From the NCBI RefSeq assembly GCF_011045215.1, contig NZ_CP049201.1: a stretch of DNA of 64,000 bases. One strand, given 5' to 3'. Position 1 is the first letter of the stretch, and every line of letters begins with the position of its first letter. This DNA comes from Escherichia coli (GTDB lineage Bacteria; Pseudomonadota; Gammaproteobacteria; Enterobacterales; Enterobacteriaceae). The position numbers were made by a program, and so were the translations under genes. Positions 10,444 through 60,104 of this stretch are shown piece by piece. A model generated the notes under the pieces. That model had not been told where the DNA came from. It saw only the letters and a list, made by a program, of their open reading frames with translations, and ran no database searches.

Positions 10444-10516
10444 AAAAAGGCCACTCGTGAGTGGCCAAAATTTCATCTCTGAATTCAGGGATGATGATAA
10501 CAAATGCGCGTCTTTC
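10444..10516 (-). ncRNA. micA: MicA (SraD) small regulatory RNA with 3' terminator hairpin GGCCACTCGTGAGTGGCC
   Basis: Reverse complement reads GAAAGACGCGCATTTGTTATCATCATCCCTGAATTCAGAGATGAAATTTTGGCCACTCACGAGTGGCCTTTTT, matching MicA; sigma-E-like -35 GAACTC / -10 TCTGA lie upstream on the minus strand (~10517..10555). Confidence 0.9.
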
Positions 10517-17110: not shown

Positions 17111-17291
<181 letters not shown>

Positions 17292-50303: not shown

Positions 50304-50352
50304 GTTGAGGCAGTATATTGAAACAATGAGAATGAATCACACATATAAGCTC

Positions 50353-51345
50353 TCACAATCTTCCGCCGTTTTTGACTGTTGCAGATATACTTTTAGCAGG
50401 TTTTAAATGCCTGGAGATTTCTTTCTGTTCTCGACGGATTTTGTATGAATTAATTTCTTCATAATCCTTGTGTTTATTTATTTTTGATAAATCAACCAAG
50501 AGATTATTTCTTATCATCCACTTTACAATTCGCTTGTTGATATCTTTATAGAGAGGGCCGCCTTTATATTTATAGAAGTGAATATCATGAATTTCACTGA
50601 TGAAATCAAGTATGGATAAGATTTCTTTATAATCACCAATGTAACTGTTAATGGTGAAATGGTCTTTATTAAGTTCTATTTTGAATCCATGTTCAGAAAG
50701 GTAATACAAGAAAAAGGCTGAGTCGAGATCACAAAAATCTACATGCAGCGTTCTTCTGTCAAATTTATCAATATGCGAGAGAATGATATCATGTAATTCA
50801 TAATCATATACATTTTCAATAAATCCTTTCCCTGAATGATCAATTTGATTGACATTGCATCCAGCATCTATTGCTACGGATAAAACTTCCGGGGAAAGGG
50901 GCATGAAGAGAATATTCATTCCTTTTTTATCGATGTGATTTATATCACAACCAGCATTAATTAATTCTGTCAATCCTTCAGCATTCCTGTAATGTTCAAA
51001 AATGCATGTGTAGCCATTAGTATCCGTATGCGAGGTGTCTAAACCCAGTTCAATCAGTTTCTTCAGTATTTCTGGATTTTTTTGATGAAAGAGCGCATTT
51101 TGCCCATGTCCGTTGATATGGTGTATATTAATTCCATAACTGAGCAGGCAATCCATGGCTTCCAGGGTTCTGCAGGCAAAAATGGCATTGTTGCCGTTAC
51201 TGTTAACAGCATTGATGTCATAGCCTATTTTTAAAGCTTTCTTTATATCATCAGGTGATCTTGCATTGAAGAATGATTCAGAAATGGCAAGGTCTAATGC
51301 CTTTTCTAATAATCCCTTTTGTAATAAGGATATGACTAATTCCAT
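50353..51345 (-). CDS. ankyrin-repeat protein with uncharacterised C-terminal domain
   Basis: ORF 50353..51357; about five degenerate ANK-like repeats (NSNGNNAIFAC..., NGHGQNALFH..., TNGYTCIFEH..., KKGMNILFMP..., HSGKGFIENV...); second ATG at 51345 has GGGGGTG RBS. Confidence 0.7.
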   Translation of the reverse strand: MELVISLLQKGLLEKALDLAISESFFNARSPDDIKKALKIGYDINAVNSNGNNAIFACRTLEAMDCLLSYGINIHHINGHGQNALFHQKNPEILKKLIELGLDTSHTDTNGYTCIFEHYRNAEGLTELINAGCDINHIDKKGMNILFMPLSPEVLSVAIDAGCNVNQIDHSGKGFIENVYDYELHDIILSHIDKFDRRTLHVDFCDLDSAFFLYYLSEHGFKIELNKDHFTINSYIGDYKEILSILDFISEIHDIHFYKYKGGPLYKDINKRIVKWMIRNNLLVDLSKINKHKDYEEINSYKIRREQKEISRHLKPAKSISATVKNGGRL

Positions 51346-51565
51346 AAACACCCCCATGAAAAAATGTTTAAGTCATTAGATATCAGAAATTCTGTGAAAT
51401 GCAACAGCTGGGGAAAGGTGTTCATGATGTGCGGAATAAAAATTTCCACAAACCACCCGTGGATACATCAGAAACACCTGCAGTAAATTTACGCCTGTAA
51501 CCTGCCGTCCGGACTATAGGACCAAACCTTCGCGGGAGATGCTACCATTACATCGGCAATGTTGA

Positions 51566-53939: not shown

Positions 53940-54245
53940 TTATTTAAGATAACTGAAAAATACAGGGTTTAAACGATACTGGTATTTGAACTCAGTAGGT
54001 ATAATAACATTCGTATCAATCAGTTCATCGATGGCCCGATAAAATCGGGCTGGCGTAATATGTATATCTTCCTGCTGTGCGATGGATGTTGCACGGTGAA
54101 AGTTCAGGTAAACAGTGTTTTTATCTGGTGTGTATGAAGCGATTAATGTGAGAAGCCAAAACACATAGTGAGCAGTATTGTTCAGATTGCGTTGTTCATC
54201 TGATAATTTATTCTGGTAAAGGTAAGCAGGGAGTCTTTGCTTCAT
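53940..54245 (-). CDS. hypothetical protein (possible winged-helix)
   Basis: 101-aa ORF directly downstream of the 187-aa HTH gene on the minus strand. Confidence 0.4.
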   Translation of the reverse strand: MKQRLPAYLYQNKLSDEQRNLNNTAHYVFWLLTLIASYTPDKNTVYLNFHRATSIAQQEDIHITPARFYRAIDELIDTNVIIPTEFKYQYRLNPVFFSYLK

Positions 54246-54314
54246 AAAGATATCCTTTGTTTTATTAAGTTTTTCGCTGGTGTGGGGCGTAAAATCACCG
54301 CGCTGTTATGTCTT

Positions 54315-54878
54315 TTAAAAGGGAATGCCGTCAGTTGGATATCTGTTTCTGGATTTTTTTACAGGCTTTGTTTTGCGCCCTGCGCGATAAAAGTTGAATG
54401 AAGTGGCAAAATCTTCAGTCTCAAGTCTGGATTTACTGAATTTATCCATCAGATCTTCATTGAAACGATGAGGAATACCTTTTACGCATAAATTAGAATT
54501 CAGGTAAACCTGACCGTCTTCAGCGTTACGGATCAGTATTTTCCTCTCAAATAATTCTCTGAATGCACGTGAAACATTCGATTTATTCAGTCCTAACTCT
54601 CTGGCAGTACGTGACTGTGAAAAGTCAGGGATAATATTTCCATAATCAATGACTGAGAAAAGATAAAGAACAATTCTGAATGCCGTTGGTGTCAGATCCA
54701 TTCGGGCGAGTGTGGCCGTATTATCTTTAAAGACCATCGAAAAATCGTCACGAAAGGATGTCTTTTTACAGGCACTTGCTTTAACTTTTATTTCTTCCAG
54801 ATCTTCGGGCATAACATCTAATGCTTCTGCAATGATTGCTTTTTGTTCTTTAGTTAACATAACACTTGTGTTTGACAT
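54315..54878 (-). CDS. HTH-domain protein, RepL-like replication/regulatory protein
   Basis: 187-aa ORF; HTH segment TARELGLNKSNVSRAFRELFERKILIR; basic C-terminus. Confidence 0.5.
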   Translation of the reverse strand: MSNTSVMLTKEQKAIIAEALDVMPEDLEEIKVKASACKKTSFRDDFSMVFKDNTATLARMDLTPTAFRIVLYLFSVIDYGNIIPDFSQSRTARELGLNKSNVSRAFRELFERKILIRNAEDGQVYLNSNLCVKGIPHRFNEDLMDKFSKSRLETEDFATSFNFYRAGRKTKPVKKSRNRYPTDGIPF

Positions 54879-55337
54879 AATGGCTCCTTTTTTATTATTG
54901 TGATAACAGATATGGCATATTAAATTTGTTTGTCAATATTATTAGTAATAAAAATTTTAAAATATTATATTTATTGCTCTGTGATTATTTTTTTAGTGAA
55001 ATATTAAGGGTTGTCAGAGTTATTACGAAGGGTGCTAAATTTCACCATCACCCGTTATGTCATTAATAATTTTTGGTTCTGAAAGATACAACCAATATTC
55101 TATCTTAACTTGTTGATGTAATTGATTAATTTTCTTTTTGTATTTGCAAGATAAAAGAGTGATAAAGAAACAAGAAACCGAAATTTAGCTTTAGACTGAC
55201 ACAAAATTCCATTGTACACAGTTTGATAAACACTGCTATTGCTGATTTTCCTTCGTAATATTATTCCTTAAGTGAAGCCTGCGCACCTGTATGTTGCGCC
55301 ACTGGGCTTCAGAACATTGCTATAGTGTTTAACTGTC

Positions 55338-55430
55338 AGTAGAAATACGCTTCGCGCAGGAGTTCAGACAGTTGGGTTTAGCTCTCAGCACAAATACGCT
55401 TCGCGCAGAGATTCAGACTGCTGAGTTTAG
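55338..55430. repeat. two tandem ~45-bp imperfect direct repeats (AGTAGAAATACGCTTCGCGCAGGAGTTCAGACAGTTGGGTTTAGC / AGCACAAATACGCTTCGCGCAGAGATTCAGACTGCTGAGTTTAGC)
   Basis: Read directly; followed at 55474..55668 by interleaved inverted repeats. Confidence 0.8.
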
Positions 55431-55872
55431 CGAAAGAGTGGACCCGACTACATGATTTACCCGTTAACTTAATACGGCTCACGCCGGAACCCCTTCGGAA
55501 AAATCCTTTCTGCTTCAGCGAGTGAGTGCTGTGGGCACTCAGCGGCGCTGCAAGAGGGATTAAACGTTGGGTTTTCATCTGACGGGTAAAAATAATCTAC
55601 ATATATCTGTCGTCGGGGGCGTGAGCCGGTGCGTAGCACTCTCTCAGAAAAATTCCTGAAGGGGTTTTATCTGAAATCTGGAAACTACCTGGCTTTTGAA
55701 AAAAGGAAGTGGTAATGCAATCGATCGGACTCAACATTGCAACAGCGTAAGCTGTTTCCAGTATTAAAAGAATAAATAGTTGTCATTTTAAAATAAAATA
55801 TTTTCAATTTTGTATTGATTTAAATTTTAAAGCTGATAGTACTTAATTATAAAAACAAAAAAGGAGAGGGTT

Positions 55873-56045
55873 ATGAGTAATATTTTTGTTTCTTCTCAGG
55901 AAGAAAAGTTTATATTTGTTGTTGATAAATATATAACACAGCATCGCGACAGTGTTAATAACAATATTTTTTACAGAAAACTTTATGTGCTTTTCGCTGG
56001 ATACCATCTGAAGTATTTTTATTCACGGGCGCAATATCGCAATTC
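55873..56045 (+). pseudogene. 5' fragment of a gene truncated by the IS21-family insertion
   Basis: Strong RBS AAGGAGAGGG plus ATG at 55873; reading frame runs into the IS terminal repeats. Confidence 0.45.
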
Positions 56046-56151
56046 GTGTTATTGCGTATTCCGCTCTATTCGATCACGGATTGGCATCGAAGTTCGATCA
56101 GCGATTCGCATCCATTCGATCAACCGGGAACTTAACTTTTTCTACCGCTTT

Positions 56152-56907
56152 TTAACTCGTTTTTTCGCTGCTTTCCACTGTCGGGGGATTTTTCCTCAGG
56201 GACTCTCCCTGAAGGACCACTCTGTGTGAGTTATGTACCAGTCTGTCCAGGATGGCATCTGCTGTTGTTGGGTTCTCCATCAGACCATGCCATTTATCTA
56301 CCGGGAACTGGCTTACCACTATCGTGCTGCTTTGTCCGTAACGATCCTCTGTGATCTCCAGAAGGTCATTACACTGGGCGTTACTTAACTGTTCCAGCCC
56401 CAGATCGTCCAGGATTAGAACCTGTATTTTTTGCAACTGTTTCAGATATTTCAGCCAACTGCCATCAACACGTCCCTGAGCCAACTGTTCCAGTAATCGC
56501 CCGGTTCTACAGTACCGGACGCTGTATTTCTGTCGACATGCCTGTTCGCCCAGCGCATTGGCTATCCAGCTCTTACCGCATCCTGTCGGACCGGTTATCA
56601 GTAGGTTTTTCCTGTGGATTATGTAGTGGCCGTTCAGCAGTTCCCTCATCTGTTCAGCCCGCAGACCTCTTGAGGCCGGATAACGCAGCCCTTCCGGTGT
56701 TGCCTGATATTTCAGGCAGGCATTTTTTCTCAACCGTGCCACACGACTGTTTTCTCTGCTCAGAAGCTCGTCATCAACCAGCAGTGTCAGCCTTTCCTCG
56801 AACGACAGTTCGTCGTAAGTCTGAGGCGTTTCCCGTTGCCGTATCAGGCTCCCGGCCATCGCCGGGAGTTTCAGTTGGGTCAGTTTGTTTAACAGATTAT
56901 CACTCAT
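56152..56907 (-). CDS. istB: IS21-family helper ATPase IstB
   Basis: ORF 56152..57150; Walker A LLITGPTGCGKSWIANALG; start taken at MSDNLLNKLTQLKLP. Confidence 0.85.
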   Translation of the reverse strand: MSDNLLNKLTQLKLPAMAGSLIRQRETPQTYDELSFEERLTLLVDDELLSRENSRVARLRKNACLKYQATPEGLRYPASRGLRAEQMRELLNGHYIIHRKNLLITGPTGCGKSWIANALGEQACRQKYSVRYCRTGRLLEQLAQGRVDGSWLKYLKQLQKIQVLILDDLGLEQLSNAQCNDLLEITEDRYGQSSTIVVSQFPVDKWHGLMENPTTADAILDRLVHNSHRVVLQGESLRKNPPTVESSEKTS

Positions 56908-56923
56908 ACGGTTGTTCCTTCTG

Positions 56924-58591
56924 TCAGTGGTAGTAGCCAGGACCACGCAGGTTTTCATGCTCTGAAGCATATGCCGGATGTTGTTCGCCCTGGCGGGATA
57001 ACGGAAGCTCAACGTTATCCCGATGATGACGCAGCAGATTGTCGATAAAGCGTCTGTCCGGGGCGTTATAGTGCAGGGCAACGTAACAGGCCTTTTCCAG
57101 CCGTTCCGGGCCGTATTTTTTCTGAAGTGCCAGCAGACCCAGGACTGCACGGTAAGCCAGCTCCGGATGGGGTTTGGCTTTCAGCATGGATTCAACCACC
57201 CGGCCTGTGGACGGACCTGTACGGTTTCCCTGCTCGATAAGGCGTTCCGGTGTCCATGTCCCATGCCGCCGGTGGCGTTCTGGCATGTGAAGCGGATTGG
57301 TTGTGTGTTTATATTCATGTGTGCTGCGCGGATGTTGCGCCACACACTGCCCCTTGTGCCAGAGCTGTACCACCGACTGCCCCACCTTCAGTGACAGACG
57401 CTGACCGACCAGTTCGTGTGGAACGGAGTACCAGTGACGGGCATATTCAACGTGGTAGTCAGGGCCAACCTTCACGGCTTTGTATTCCGTGTATTCATAA
57501 GGCTCCAGAGGCAGCGGAGAGAGTGCTGGTGCATCCAGCATGCGGAAGCGTTCTGCGCGGGTTTGATTACCGTATCCCTTCATTGGTCGGTTATTCATGT
57601 CCGTCAGCAACTCCCGAAGGCGTGCATTCAGCGCCCTGAGCGTGTGGAAGGTTTCATTACGGATGCGGGCAAGAAGCCATCGCTCGACGATGAGGACGCC
57701 GTTTTCTGCTTTTGGTTTATCTTTAGGTTTGCGCGGGCGGGCCGGGATAATAACCGTGCCATAGTGCTCAGCCAGCGCCTGATAACTGTCGTTGATGACA
57801 GGCTCATAGCGATCGGCTTTTTTCACTGCGCTTCTGAGGTTATCGGGGATGAGCAGCTTCGGTACGCCGCCCAGGAAGGTCAGGCAACGGCTGTGGGCAT
57901 TTAACCATGACATCATGTCCTGACCTTCGCACGCTTCAACATAGGTATAGTTGGACGCCCCCATTACAGCCACGAAGATTGCCACGCGGCGTATCTCTCC
58001 GGTGTCCGGATTAATAACAGGGACCGTAGGACCACAGAAGTCGATAAAGAGCTTTTCGCCAGCACGATGCTCCTGTCGCATGGAGAGGCGTCGCGTTTTT
58101 TTCCACTTCCGGTAGCAACGGCAGAAGTGTGAGTATCCCATCGCTTTGTCACCCGCCTGTGCCTTGTATTCCATCCACAACAGTTGGCGCGTCACGCCAG
58201 GTTTTCTCATTTCCGTATCGAAGTACAGCATGTCAGGCATAACAAGCTCTGACGCAGAGGTGTCTTTGGGCGGGAAAATGAGTTTCTCCAGCGTGTCATG
58301 GGATATATCAGCAGGTAATGGCCATGACAGAGAAGAGGCTTTGAAGCGGGCAAGAACCTCAAAAACGGTTGAGGCGCTGATGTGTAACGTCAGTCCGATA
58401 CAACGGTTAGTCAGCTTCTTATCGAACTTGAGCTGAAGGATCTTAAAACAAGTTTCCATAGTGCTCCTGGATTTTCTCTTTTTGGACATTGACGTCTCCA
58501 CTGGTTTAAACACGGCAATGGAGACTGTGGTGAAAAGAGTTAATTCCCGGAGTGACTGGCGAATTCCAATCAATGATCGGAAGTATGCCAA
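56924..58591 (-). CDS. istA: IS21-family transposase IstA
   Basis: 555-aa ORF with integrase core upstream of istB; true start probably an internal Met (MSKKRK... or METCFK...). Confidence 0.8.
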   Translation of the reverse strand: MAYFRSLIGIRQSLRELTLFTTVSIAVFKPVETSMSKKRKSRSTMETCFKILQLKFDKKLTNRCIGLTLHISASTVFEVLARFKASSLSWPLPADISHDTLEKLIFPPKDTSASELVMPDMLYFDTEMRKPGVTRQLLWMEYKAQAGDKAMGYSHFCRCYRKWKKTRRLSMRQEHRAGEKLFIDFCGPTVPVINPDTGEIRRVAIFVAVMGASNYTYVEACEGQDMMSWLNAHSRCLTFLGGVPKLLIPDNLRSAVKKADRYEPVINDSYQALAEHYGTVIIPARPRKPKDKPKAENGVLIVERWLLARIRNETFHTLRALNARLRELLTDMNNRPMKGYGNQTRAERFRMLDAPALSPLPLEPYEYTEYKAVKVGPDYHVEYARHWYSVPHELVGQRLSLKVGQSVVQLWHKGQCVAQHPRSTHEYKHTTNPLHMPERHRRHGTWTPERLIEQGNRTGPSTGRVVESMLKAKPHPELAYRAVLGLLALQKKYGPERLEKACYVALHYNAPDRRFIDNLLRHHRDNVELPLSRQGEQHPAYASEHENLRGPGYYH

Positions 58592-58614
58592 ATCGTGATC
58601 GATTGTGATGCCAA

Positions 58615-60104
58615 CATATCCTTACCCATAAATCCGAGTGATGTTATTCTGTTGATAAATTAACCATAATTTAGAGGAACTATGGAAAACTGGGTTATTA
58701 AGGAGCTGGAATCTCTGAATGTTGGTGATATCAGGCTCGAAAAGCGAATAAAGCACGTTCTCAGTGTGCTTAGCCGTTCACCAAAGGAAAGTATTCCCGT
58801 ATCCTGCCGTACCTGGAGTGAGACAAAAGCTGCTTATCGTTGCTTTTCCAGTGATAAAATTTCAGCCGATAAAATCATGGCTCCCCATAAGAAAAATATC
58901 ATCGAAAGGACTAAACAGTTTAAACGGGCTCTGGTTTTACAGGATACGACTGAACTAAATTATTCTGGTCAAAAAAAGAAACAGGGCGTCGGTCCCAGAC
59001 GACATGAAAATGAGCGAGATTTGTTTATTCACCCTCAATTGGTTATAAGTGATTCAGGTATTTGCTTAGGGGTTTATGATGATTATCAATGGTTCAGAAA
59101 AGAACTCAAAACTCAGAAACAAAGTCGTAAAGAAATAACTAATGATTCACTTCACAGGAAACATATCAGTGAGAAAGAAACAGGACGGTGGATAGAAGGA
59201 TATAAAAAAGCAACAGAACTGGCTAGGTCCTGTCCTGATACCCAGATAATTTCTGTTTCAGACCGTGAAGGTGATATTTACGACCTCTTTGAGAGTGCAG
59301 AAAATGAAAGTGGGATAAAGGCTGACTGGCTCGTAAGAATGAAGAGCATTAACCGGGCTATACTGAATTCATCAGGAAAAAGAGACTCATTACTCCTGAA
59401 TGAAAAAATGATGCAGATTTTGCCACAGCAGATAATTGAGTTTACCCTTCCGGAAGGACGAGGACAACCTTCCCGCAAAGTCCAGCAGGAGCTACGCTTA
59501 GCAAGGTTGACGCTACATCCACCCACCGGTCGAAGAGGAAAGTTACGTTGTTCTCCGGTAACGGTAACTGTATTACTTGCAAAGGAAATAAATGCTCCAG
59601 AAAGTGTCCAGCCATTAGTATGGTGGCTAATGAGTAGTGTACCTCCAGAAAAGCTGACGGAACCCGCACAGCTTATTCAATGGTATTTATTACGCTGGCA
59701 GATTGAAGTTTTCTTTAAGGTATTAAAAAGCGGATGTCAGGTTGAGAAATTACAACTTGAGACATTTGAACGCACAAGGAACTGTCTGGCCTTATACCTT
59801 ATAATCTCATGGAGAATACTTTATCTTAGCTCATTGTATAAAATGGTTCCGGAGGAACCCTGTGATTTAATTTTCGAAAAGAAAGAATATGAGTATCTCT
59901 GGATATTGGTAGAGAATACGCCTCCACCTGAAAACATACCGAATATAAGAACGGCGGTTTTAATGCTTGCAAGATTAGGAGGATATCTGGCAAGAAAAAA
60001 TGATTCGCCTCCAGGCCCTAAGACTATATGGTCAGGATTAACACAATTAATGCTGTCAATTAATGCCATAGAAATAGCCCAGAAAACTTGTGGGTAAGGG
60101 TATG
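58615..60104 (+). mobile_element. IS4-family (IS50/Tn5-like) insertion sequence, 1490 bp, flanked by 9-bp target duplication TGATGCCAA (58606..58614 and 60105..60113)
   Basis: Direct repeats read directly; imperfect terminal inverted repeats CATATCCTTACCCATAAATCC / CATACCCTTACCCACAAGTTT; 9-bp duplication is the size expected for IS50. Confidence 0.75.
58682..60097 (+). CDS. IS4-family DDE transposase (Tn5 Tnp-like)
   Basis: 471-aa ORF; YLLRWQIEVFFKVLKSGCQVEKLQLE parallels Tn5 YTHRWRIEEFHKAWKTGAGAERQRME; LMLARLGGYLARK parallels MAIARLGGFMDSK. Confidence 0.85.
   Translation: MENWVIKELESLNVGDIRLEKRIKHVLSVLSRSPKESIPVSCRTWSETKAAYRCFSSDKISADKIMAPHKKNIIERTKQFKRALVLQDTTELNYSGQKKKQGVGPRRHENERDLFIHPQLVISDSGICLGVYDDYQWFRKELKTQKQSRKEITNDSLHRKHISEKETGRWIEGYKKATELARSCPDTQIISVSDREGDIYDLFESAENESGIKADWLVRMKSINRAILNSSGKRDSLLLNEKMMQILPQQIIEFTLPEGRGQPSRKVQQELRLARLTLHPPTGRRGKLRCSPVTVTVLLAKEINAPESVQPLVWWLMSSVPPEKLTEPAQLIQWYLLRWQIEVFFKVLKSGCQVEKLQLETFERTRNCLALYLIISWRILYLSSLYKMVPEEPCDLIFEKKEYEYLWILVENTPPPENIPNIRTAVLMLARLGGYLARKNDSPPGPKTIWSGLTQLMLSINAIEIAQKTCG

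Follow-up and report, generated by a model that had tools for sequence, protein, structure and literature searches.

The window, a stretch of 64,000 nucleotides from the Escherichia coli chromosome (contig NZ_CP049201.1), contains an island that starts at a tRNA gene with the anticodon CAT (39588-39663), which we take to be ileY. In this island a 994-nt intergenic region (54879-55872) separates a Rep-like gene from a gene encoding a 141-aa protein, p141, and a block inside this region, at 55265-55700, is non-coding. The non-coding element has a length of roughly 200-400 bases; the G+C content is about 50% over 55270-55700, and 18-25% in the flanks on either side. The features of the locus are as follows.

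54315..54878, minus strand: Rep-like winged-helix gene (187 aa), divergent from the element
55146..55179, no strand given: purine/pyrimidine tract GCAAGATAAAAGAGTGATAAAGAAACAAGAAACC, invariant across island clades
55274-55310, plus strand: hairpin H1, outer stem GAAGCC/GGCTTC, inner stem GCGCA.C/G.TGCGC
55327-55375 and 55376-55424, plus strand: the two units of a tandem direct repeat, 49 nt each, 80-82% identical
55327-55424, plus strand: repeat-unit hairpins, potential stems AACTGTC/GACAGTT and CTCAGCA/TGCTGAG
55475-55485 and 55618-55628: X (CGGCTCACGCC) and X' (GGCGTGAGCCG), 11 nt with perfect complementarity
55475-55486, plus strand: local hairpin X, CGGC-TCAC-GCCG, containing the first arm of an inverted repeat reported earlier
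55488-55500 and 55653-55666: Y (AACCCCTTCGGAA) and Y' (TTCC-T-GAAGGGGTT), 13 pairs with one bulge
55488-55500, plus strand: 5' arm of the closing helix Y, the partner of which is 55653-55666
55502-55513/55550-55561, plus strand: lower stem of the long hairpin P, which spans 55502..55561
55523-55541, plus strand: upper stem of P with the palindrome, above a middle stem CAGCG/CGCTG
55524-55540: palindrome GAGTGC-TGTGG-GCACTC
55618..55627, plus strand: local hairpin X', GGC-GTGA-GCC, the complementary arm of that earlier inverted repeat
55629..55639, plus strand: hairpin P2, GTGC-GTA-GCAC
55653..55672, plus strand: 3' arm of Y followed by a T-run (55667-55672), GGGGTTTTAT
55873..56052 (5' part) and 60190-60440 (3' part), plus strand: p141 (141 aa), which always follows the element
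63534..63573, minus strand: probable island oriT, inverted repeat GAGCAGATT-N11-AATCTGCTC followed by CACCTATCTTA, upstream of the NikA-like/relaxase operon

The first-pass annotation had described, upstream of an IS21 insertion, two tandem repeats of about 45 bp followed by two inverted repeats and a palindrome. The two repeat units were found, with a length of 49 nt instead of 45; both inverted repeats (X/X' and Y/Y') and the palindrome at 55524-55540 are present, and the crossing order X-Y...X'-Y' that had been claimed is true of the sequence. The identity of the 49-nt repeats was matched in none of 300 dinucleotide-preserving shuffles of 55270-55700 (maximum 63%). Seven of 300 shuffles also had perfect inverted repeats of 11 nt or more, and the X/X' inverted repeat taken alone is only mildly unusual. 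The heptamer GCTTCGC is found once per 49-nt unit, at 55349 and 55398, and reads GCGAAGC on the minus strand.

An IS21 element does lie downstream of the repeats, but it is not adjacent to them, being about 380 nt away and inside the next gene. In the window, p141 is split by an insert of about 4.1 kb that comprises an IS21-family element (IstA, IstB) and an IS4/Tn5-type transposase; the two pieces of the gene, mapped by comparing the window with the intact E24377A gene (blastn), overlap by 5 bp. The IS21 element was inserted later, into the adjoining gene, and is unrelated to the repeats. The p141 family is confined to Enterobacterales, and searches of Pfam, PHROG and NCBIfam with p141 gave no match. 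The protein is predicted to be all-helical. AlphaFold models of p141 and of the Rep-like protein (pLDDT 54.5 and 53.9, respectively) were both too poor for use, and the fold search yielded just 'winged helix, MarR-like'.

The element and its orientation are fixed within one module at every locus examined, Yersinia included. The module starts with an integrase gene, followed, in islands inserted at the mutS site, by a gene for a 191-aa HTH_17 protein, and then by the helix-turn-helix (Rep-like) gene on the minus strand. About 1 kb of non-coding DNA and p141 (plus strand) come next, then the genes for two small predicted lipoproteins and a 90-aa protein, all on the minus strand, and finally those for a PF03432 relaxase with weak MOBP-type matches and for a weakly NikA-like protein, both also on the minus strand. 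Insertion sites differ: the tRNA gene at 39588 in the window, a site adjoining mutS in other islands, and a site adjoining lptF/lptG in Yersinia. These islands are a family of integrative mobilizable elements, hosted by E. coli, Klebsiella, Salmonella, Citrobacter, Enterobacter and Yersinia. In E24377A and its relatives, the homologous DNA is annotated with AIDA/YpjA-type autotransporter, SIR2, ankyrin and DUF6387 genes, together with helix-turn-helix genes, a relaxase/mobilization nuclease, Kiwa and type I restriction genes; the defence cargo differs between islands and, at the loci examined, included Kiwa, type I restriction, SIR2, retron Eco8 and BamHI-type genes.

A sensitive blastn search found the element in 181 of 5,426 complete E. 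coli genomes, always on the chromosome, with a median of one place per carrier genome and a maximum of two; the 511-base query was 99.8% identical to E. coli E24377A, a carrier in which the locus is undisrupted (NC_009801, 2929326-2929836). The core of the element (about 55475-55555 and 55613-55645) is at least 90% identical between clades in which the flanking proteins have diverged (63-69% identity for the helix-turn-helix proteins, 54-63% for the relaxases and 38-69% for the p141 proteins). Judged by these identities, the non-coding element is under stronger constraint than the surrounding genes. The absence of a conserved reading frame shows that it is non-coding: there are stops in all six frames of every sequence and indels are mostly of 1-2 nt, which rules out a decayed gene or a small protein.

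No annotation or description of the element was found in Rfam or in a search of the literature. An Rfam scan of the whole window at gathering thresholds reported nothing in the region of the element, and a relaxed scan of 54000-57000 gave no match even at E up to 1. Neither the element nor, at E up to 1, its core alone matched any of 72,556 plasmids by blastn, and the element matched none of 50,697 phages. The exact core pattern had no match in a set of one genome per species representing 100,044 species; the element is accessory and missing from those genomes.

Conservation is the strongest evidence that the element does not result from chance. The first-pass annotation had judged the block too organised for random intergenic DNA, and this judgement is borne out: the same block, in the same gene context and in single copy, is conserved across islands, and we regard it as a functional element. 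Its suggestion of relic element ends fails, as the element is single-copy per genome, occupies a constant position in the island backbone and is unrelated to the IS21 insertion. A REP sequence, a MITE or an IS end, which would need many dispersed copies, was rejected on the same copy numbers. Within the block, the 49-nt repeats are the least conserved part, with three copies in FORC64 (L003) and two in the window; the K56-43, L021 and Yersinia types have degenerate units or none. Hairpin H1 is kept in all clades including Yersinia, and its outer stem carries a compensatory change in K56-43-type sequences (GAAGCC/GGCTTC to GAAGTC/GACTTC).

Base pairing was analysed in an alignment (A2) of 31 core sequences, 29 of which are distinct, and pairs were counted on a structure specified by hand. 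RNAalifold recovered X/X', P and P2 from A2 with a covariation term of just -0.48 kcal/mol, and chose Y/Y' over X/X' on a clade-balanced subset. In Y/Y', 81% of the cells are paired, and both partners are substituted in five of the 13 pairs (examples are C-G to U-A and A-U to G-C); this helix is weak in the L002, L042 and L021 types. The covariation score of the whole structure was 0.095, compared with 0.074 in shuffles (none of 500 reached 0.095) and with at most 0.061 when partner columns were slid.

In X/X', one pair is compensatory, and 9 to 14 of the 29 distinct sequences lack pairing at the three positions in the centre. Both X (CGGC-N4-GCCG) and X' (GGC-N4-GCC) are self-complementary, GC-clamped hairpins, and because the two hairpins have the same palindromic stem, eight of the 11 mutual X/X' pairs are automatic. 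A nested model, in which X and X' pair locally, pairs 93.3% of the cells, compared with 89.6% for the crossing model. A pseudoknot is not needed, since the nested model pairs more cells and the centre of X/X' is often unpaired; X/X' is better read from these alignments as two separate GC hairpins, the loops of which are complementary in the window by mere coincidence. An H-type RNA pseudoknot, in which both crossing helices must be kept, was rejected on the contrast between one compensatory pair in X/X' and five in Y/Y'. The pseudoknot-like reading proposed at first inspection is therefore abandoned: X/X' is explained by local hairpins and, beyond the one pair, compensatory change is seen in Y/Y' alone of these two helices. 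A lack of conservation and covariation in homologous islands had been named as refuting the original proposal; on this point the proposal stands, as the block is conserved and Y/Y' has compensatory substitutions in those islands.

The stem of X is invariant in the 29 distinct sequences, with the loops TCAC, TTTC, TTAC, ATAC and ATAA (the latter at the Yersinia locus). The X' hairpin is paired in 96.6% of the cells and has the loops GTGA, GTAA, GGAA and GATA, which are GNRA-like on the plus strand. In P, the seven upper pairs are invariant below the loops TGTGG, TGCGG, TGAGG, TGCGT and TTTGT, and the middle stem shows a change of G-C to G·U in 12 sequences. The stem of P2 is essentially invariant (99% of the cells paired), with the loops GTA, GAA and AAA. 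Most helices are invariant, hence uninformative for or against pairing; the combination of invariant stems with variable loops in P, P2, X and X' is suggestive of hairpins.

Compared with shuffled sequences, 55265-55700 folds better both as plus-strand RNA (z = -4.0) and as minus-strand DNA (z = -3.7). Among the cells that are not Watson-Crick paired, G·T outnumbers A·C by 22 to two in Y/Y' and by 12 to none in the middle stem of P. This G·T excess favours the plus strand as the pairing strand, the asymmetry probably representing just about six independent events. The consensus folding energy was -32.6 kcal/mol for the plus strand versus -26.4 kcal/mol for the minus strand; the plus strand is richer in G and T, and after correction with shuffles the minus strand at least equals the plus strand in folding in five of six clades, which renders a strand call by shuffle-corrected folding ambiguous. 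On balance the plus strand is preferred, without certainty.

A run of four to seven T residues follows the G-rich Y' arm in every clade. The helix that precedes this U-tract encloses about 150 nt, unlike that of a canonical intrinsic terminator, and the tract has just a weak local hairpin in front of it. Scans upstream of X and of H1 revealed no sigma-70 promoter that was both convincing and conserved, nor more hits than in shuffles, and promoter and terminator scans of the plus strand found nothing conserved. Weak terminator-like hairpins were found on the minus strand only, in the repeat units and, in the K56-43 type, at X.

The gene divergent from the element provides a context for its function. 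The 187-aa protein matches Pfam HTH_36 above the cut-off, and has weak matches to RepL, to Phage_rep_O (the phage replication protein O N-terminal domain) and to Rep3_N/Rep_3. Homologues with 42-47% identity are encoded by complete circular plasmids (2,674 and 2,811 bp) that have just one further gene, for a Mob_Pre relaxase; contigs of about 3 kb, circular or concatemeric, encode related proteins. Upstream of rep, the small plasmids have a T-rich tract and four palindromic iterons of 22 bp. The presence of homologues in two-gene circular plasmids, with iterons before the gene, identifies this helix-turn-helix family, by homology, as a plasmid replication initiator. Plasmids L045 and L062 have a tract like GCAAGATAAAAGAGTGATAAAGAAACAAGAAACC, namely GGTTTCTTCTTTCTTATTTTCTT, just before their iterons; in the islands, the T-rich tract lies between rep and the element. 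An iteron array such as that of the plasmids (four copies of 22 bp) was sought in the islands and found to be absent; the islands may keep one iteron-like site, at 55054-55069. Judging from this gene context, the element is located where an origin or a replication-control element would be expected. One sequence, OX345049 ('plasmid 132'), encodes a Rep that is 68% identical; it was rejected as an autonomous plasmid, being a linear 3.7-kb contig that starts at the rep promoter, and is probably an island fragment.

The probable oriT of the island lies directly upstream of the NikA-like/relaxase operon (63534-63573). Relative to its repeat, CACCTATCTTA is placed like what we take to be the RP4 nick region, CACCTATCCTG (|C), and matches it at nine of 11 bases. 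The repeat that other clades have here is a different one. If the nick is read correctly, the transferred strand is the minus strand, an orientation opposite to that of RP4 itself, and p141 would be the sole backbone gene that has the transferred strand as its template.

Taken together, the structural and contextual data make a structured RNA or a single-strand origin signal the most likely identity of the element. Our leading but tentative proposal is that it specifies, on the plus strand, a structured RNA acting in the replication/maintenance module of the island. The RNA would have a core of about 200 nt (55475-55672), or possibly about 400 nt with H1 and the repeat hairpins. The multi-branched domain closed by helix Y/Y' would hold the long invariant hairpin P together with X' and P2, both small GC hairpins. 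A U-tract directly after the 3' arm of Y would end the transcript. Transcription and the two ends of the RNA are inferred, and the RNA might regulate the Rep-like gene or p141, for example in the control of copy number, incompatibility or expression. Fixed synteny, constraint, the non-coding nature of the element, covariation in Y/Y', the wobble bias, the T-run and folding argue for a plus-strand RNA; the absence of a conserved promoter, the atypical terminator, the folding of the minus strand, the invariance of most helices and the absence of an Rfam match weaken it.

Structured transcripts of a few hundred nucleotides with several stem-loops are well known in plasmid replication regions, as exemplified by RNA I/RNA II of ColE1 and by the Inc RNA of IncI-alpha and IncB plasmids; such RNAs adjoin or replace a rep gene, and the Inc RNA system has a pseudoknot in the leader. 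The RNA predicted here is similar in its size, in its multiple stem-loops and in its location in the replication region of a mobile replicon. It differs from these RNAs in that it has no Rfam similarity, points away from rep without overlapping a rep leader, and has a form in which the pseudoknot is not supported.

A bolder version of the plus-strand RNA proposal is unlikely, namely that the element represents an undescribed class of structured RNA, confined to these widespread, defence-carrying mobilizable islands of Enterobacterales, that serves as a copy-number, incompatibility or activation switch. Such a switch would act in trans or in cis, for instance by sensing excision or a helper plasmid, and would gate the Rep-like protein or p141. 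If true, this role would explain why the element is more constant than any island protein.

The strongest alternative to a plus-strand RNA, rather unlikely but to be taken seriously, is a single-strand DNA initiation signal of the ssi/sso type. Known signals of this kind, G4-type ssi of enterobacterial plasmids, ssoA/ssoU and the sso of ICEBs1, are conserved, orientation-dependent clusters of hairpins that are constrained by the host machinery. Here, hairpins on the transferred or displaced strand would recruit primase, PriA or RNA polymerase and prime the complementary strand once the excised island has undergone conjugative transfer or rolling-circle replication. A single-stranded stage is expected from the MOBP-like relaxase, its NikA-like partner and the probable oriT, and the element, like the known signals a conserved non-coding cluster of hairpins, is made up of many short GC stems with variable loops; conservation of the core beyond that of the island proteins fits recognition by a conserved host machinery. 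The good folding of the minus strand as DNA, with corrected z-scores at least equal to those of the plus strand in most clades, is also in favour of this explanation, as the minus strand is the transferred one if the nick site is read correctly. In addition, d(GCGAAGC) is an exceptionally stable DNA mini-hairpin, and this motif is present in each repeat unit on the minus strand, but it is confined to the clades that have the repeats. The wobble pairs of Y/Y' and of the middle stem of P point to the plus strand, which is probably not the transferred one. Furthermore, no plasmid sequence, those with known ssi sites among them, was similar by blastn, and the assignment of the transferred strand itself depends on a 9/11 match to the presumed RP4 nick region, in an orientation opposite to that of RP4.

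Duplex binding sites for proteins, within a vegetative replication origin of the island, would account for the palindromes in another way, and this explanation is improbable, although also a serious rival. The 49-nt repeats would be iterons for the Rep-like protein, and CGGC-N4-GCCG, GAGTGC-N5-GCACTC and GTGC-N3-GCAC would be operators for dimeric proteins. Islands of another mobilizable family excise, replicate from their own repA-oriV and are then mobilized, and these repA-oriV islands, which have iterons, set a precedent (preprint 10.64898/2026.01.12.698999). In the present islands, the neighbouring gene belongs to the family of the sole candidate initiator of the two-gene plasmids, in which four 22-bp iterons lie upstream of rep; the T-rich tract is common to the island intergenic region and the plasmid origins, and the copy number of the repeats varies from 2 to 3. 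As in the origins of the small Rep plasmids and of the repA-oriV islands (PIME), the element is upstream of a homologous rep and has direct repeats, AT-rich flanks and a T-rich tract. Unlike the plasmids, which have four palindromic iterons at a 22-bp spacing, the islands have no such array, and their repeats are 49 nt long, in two to three copies, and missing from three clades that keep the Rep-like gene. An iteron-type origin, which requires at least three regular repeats of about 17-22 bp wherever rep is found, was rejected on these grounds. No DnaA box or IHF consensus was found in 54879-55872. The core is invariant while the Rep-like protein falls to 63% identity, without co-variation between them, and the compensatory changes in Y/Y' and the strand-biased wobble indicate base pairing and not recognition of a duplex.

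An origin of transfer, or a second one used by the relaxase of a helper plasmid, was also considered, with the conserved GGGGCGTAAGCCAGTGCGTAGCAC as the nick region and X/X' or P as the relaxase-binding repeat. The nick region is usually the most conserved part of an oriT and the core is more conserved than the relaxase; the motif AGTGCG, which follows a GC hairpin and presumably resembles the 5' side of an RSF1010-type nick sequence, was also counted in favour of this role. A better candidate is nevertheless present at 63534-63573, and other clades also have a repeat at that position. Searches of 55270-55700 for the MOBP (YATCCTG|Y, one mismatch) and MOBQ (AAGTGCG|CCCT, two mismatches) nick consensus found neither. 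The better candidate and the absence of a nick consensus from the core make a transfer-origin role unlikely; in addition, about 3.5 kb separate the core and the relaxase operon where IS elements are absent, and the lack of a blastn match in 72,556 plasmids speaks against mimicry of a helper origin. We consider this role very improbable.

Least credible among the graded explanations is a single-strand DNA promoter of the Frpo type, which would switch on p141 early, from a structure folded on the incoming strand. Frpo-type elements, as in F and ColIb-P9, are non-coding parts of leading regions with a high degree of structure (PMC9849209), and the element is similarly a non-coding, structured block upstream of a gene that may have the transferred strand as its template. 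It is always directly upstream of p141, which is always opposite in orientation to the relaxase operon. It lacks, however, a long hairpin that rebuilds -35 and -10 boxes: the fold of the minus-strand DNA is multi-branched, with stems that contain no promoter hexamers by inspection. It has no blastn match in plasmids, and the wobble bias favours the plus strand when a folded promoter would need the minus strand. Moreover, a conventional promoter-like block is conserved at 55834-55856, between the element and p141.

Two other candidates were rejected. In type III toxin-antitoxin systems such as ToxI and CptI, a small gene follows tandem repeats of about 36-49 nt, from which a terminator-like site separates it; the island repeats are of comparable length and also upstream of a small gene, but they are absent in several clades and are 450 nt from p141, which has no ToxN-, CptN- or TenpN-type match. 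A Xer/dif-like site was suggested by GGTGCGTAGCA, which we take to resemble an XerC arm, but no XerD arm was found by eye and the first G of this sequence is not conserved.

The element looks like a non-coding control or origin element of mobile replicons, a known class, and the present result is a lead rather than a demonstrated mechanism. The most conserved backbone feature of these islands, which carry anti-phage genes, is a non-coding block and not a protein. Whether this block is an RNA regulator, a priming signal or part of an origin, the answer would show how the islands replicate and establish themselves after transfer. The element would also serve as a compact sequence marker for locating such islands. 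A 28-nt core pattern matched 36 metagenome contigs, and the core was also found in islands of Yersinia enterocolitica.

The gene p141 (141 aa, starting at 55873) is found in two pieces, 55873-56052 and 60190-60440, separated by an insert of about 4.1 kb (56053-60189). Two insertion sequences, one of the IS21 family and one of the IS4/Tn5 type, are carried by this insert:

56152-57150, IstB of the IS21-family element
56924-58591, IstA of the IS21-family element
58682-60097, transposase gene of the IS4/Tn5 type

The two p141 pieces share 5 bp at their junctions, an overlap that looks like a target duplication. The E. coli strain E24377A, which has a related island, carries an unbroken p141, and there an IS21 element occupies another gene. 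p141 received no family assignment; its fold is predicted to be all-helical, and in the family alignment (A3) the C-terminal end is an invariant R-x-R-L motif (variants RKRL, RRRL and RPRL). Among the backbone genes, only p141 runs opposite to the relaxase operon. A role of p141 in establishment or anti-defence is conceivable.

Three sites may be related to transfer or replication:

63534-63573, minus strand, probable transfer origin of the island, made up of the inverted repeat GAGCAGATT-N11-AATCTGCTC and then CACCTATCTTA
55146-55179, invariant tract, reading GGTTTCTTGTTTCTTTATCACTCTTTTATCTTGC on the minus strand
55054-55069, iteron-like site GTTATGTCATTAATAA

In the first of these, the CACCTATCTTA that follows the inverted repeat is similar to the RP4 nick region. 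In this orientation the relaxase operon would enter the recipient first, whereas the reverse is the case for RP4. The invariant tract also occurs in Klebsiella and Enterobacter plasmids of 2.7-3.2 kb with a homologous Rep, where it lies in the origin region; it includes TATCTTGC, which is the MOBP nick consensus with one mismatch. The iteron-like site is similar to one palindromic 22-bp iteron (ATTATGAAAATCATAAT) of related small plasmids; it could be an operator, or what is left of a site once bound by Rep.

Loci L045-L054, L061 and L062 belong to a plasmid family of Klebsiella, Enterobacter and Citrobacter. Its members are circular, very small (2.7-3.3 kb) and encode only a Mob_Pre relaxase and a HTH_36-type Rep. 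This Rep appears to be mis-annotated, because public records list it as a regulator, whether of the Crp/Fnr, MarR or plain helix-turn-helix kind.

Cargo of the island (48112-51357), with the autotransporter gene on one side and the backbone on the other, includes:

48112-49464, SIR2_2-domain protein
50353-51357, ankyrin-repeat protein

In related islands, too, ankyrin-repeat genes recur, there adjoining the NikA-like gene. Rfam detected two naRNA4 (CssrE) copies and MicA, at 17114-17291 and 10445-10516, in the window's chromosomal part; these are ordinary, already known features.
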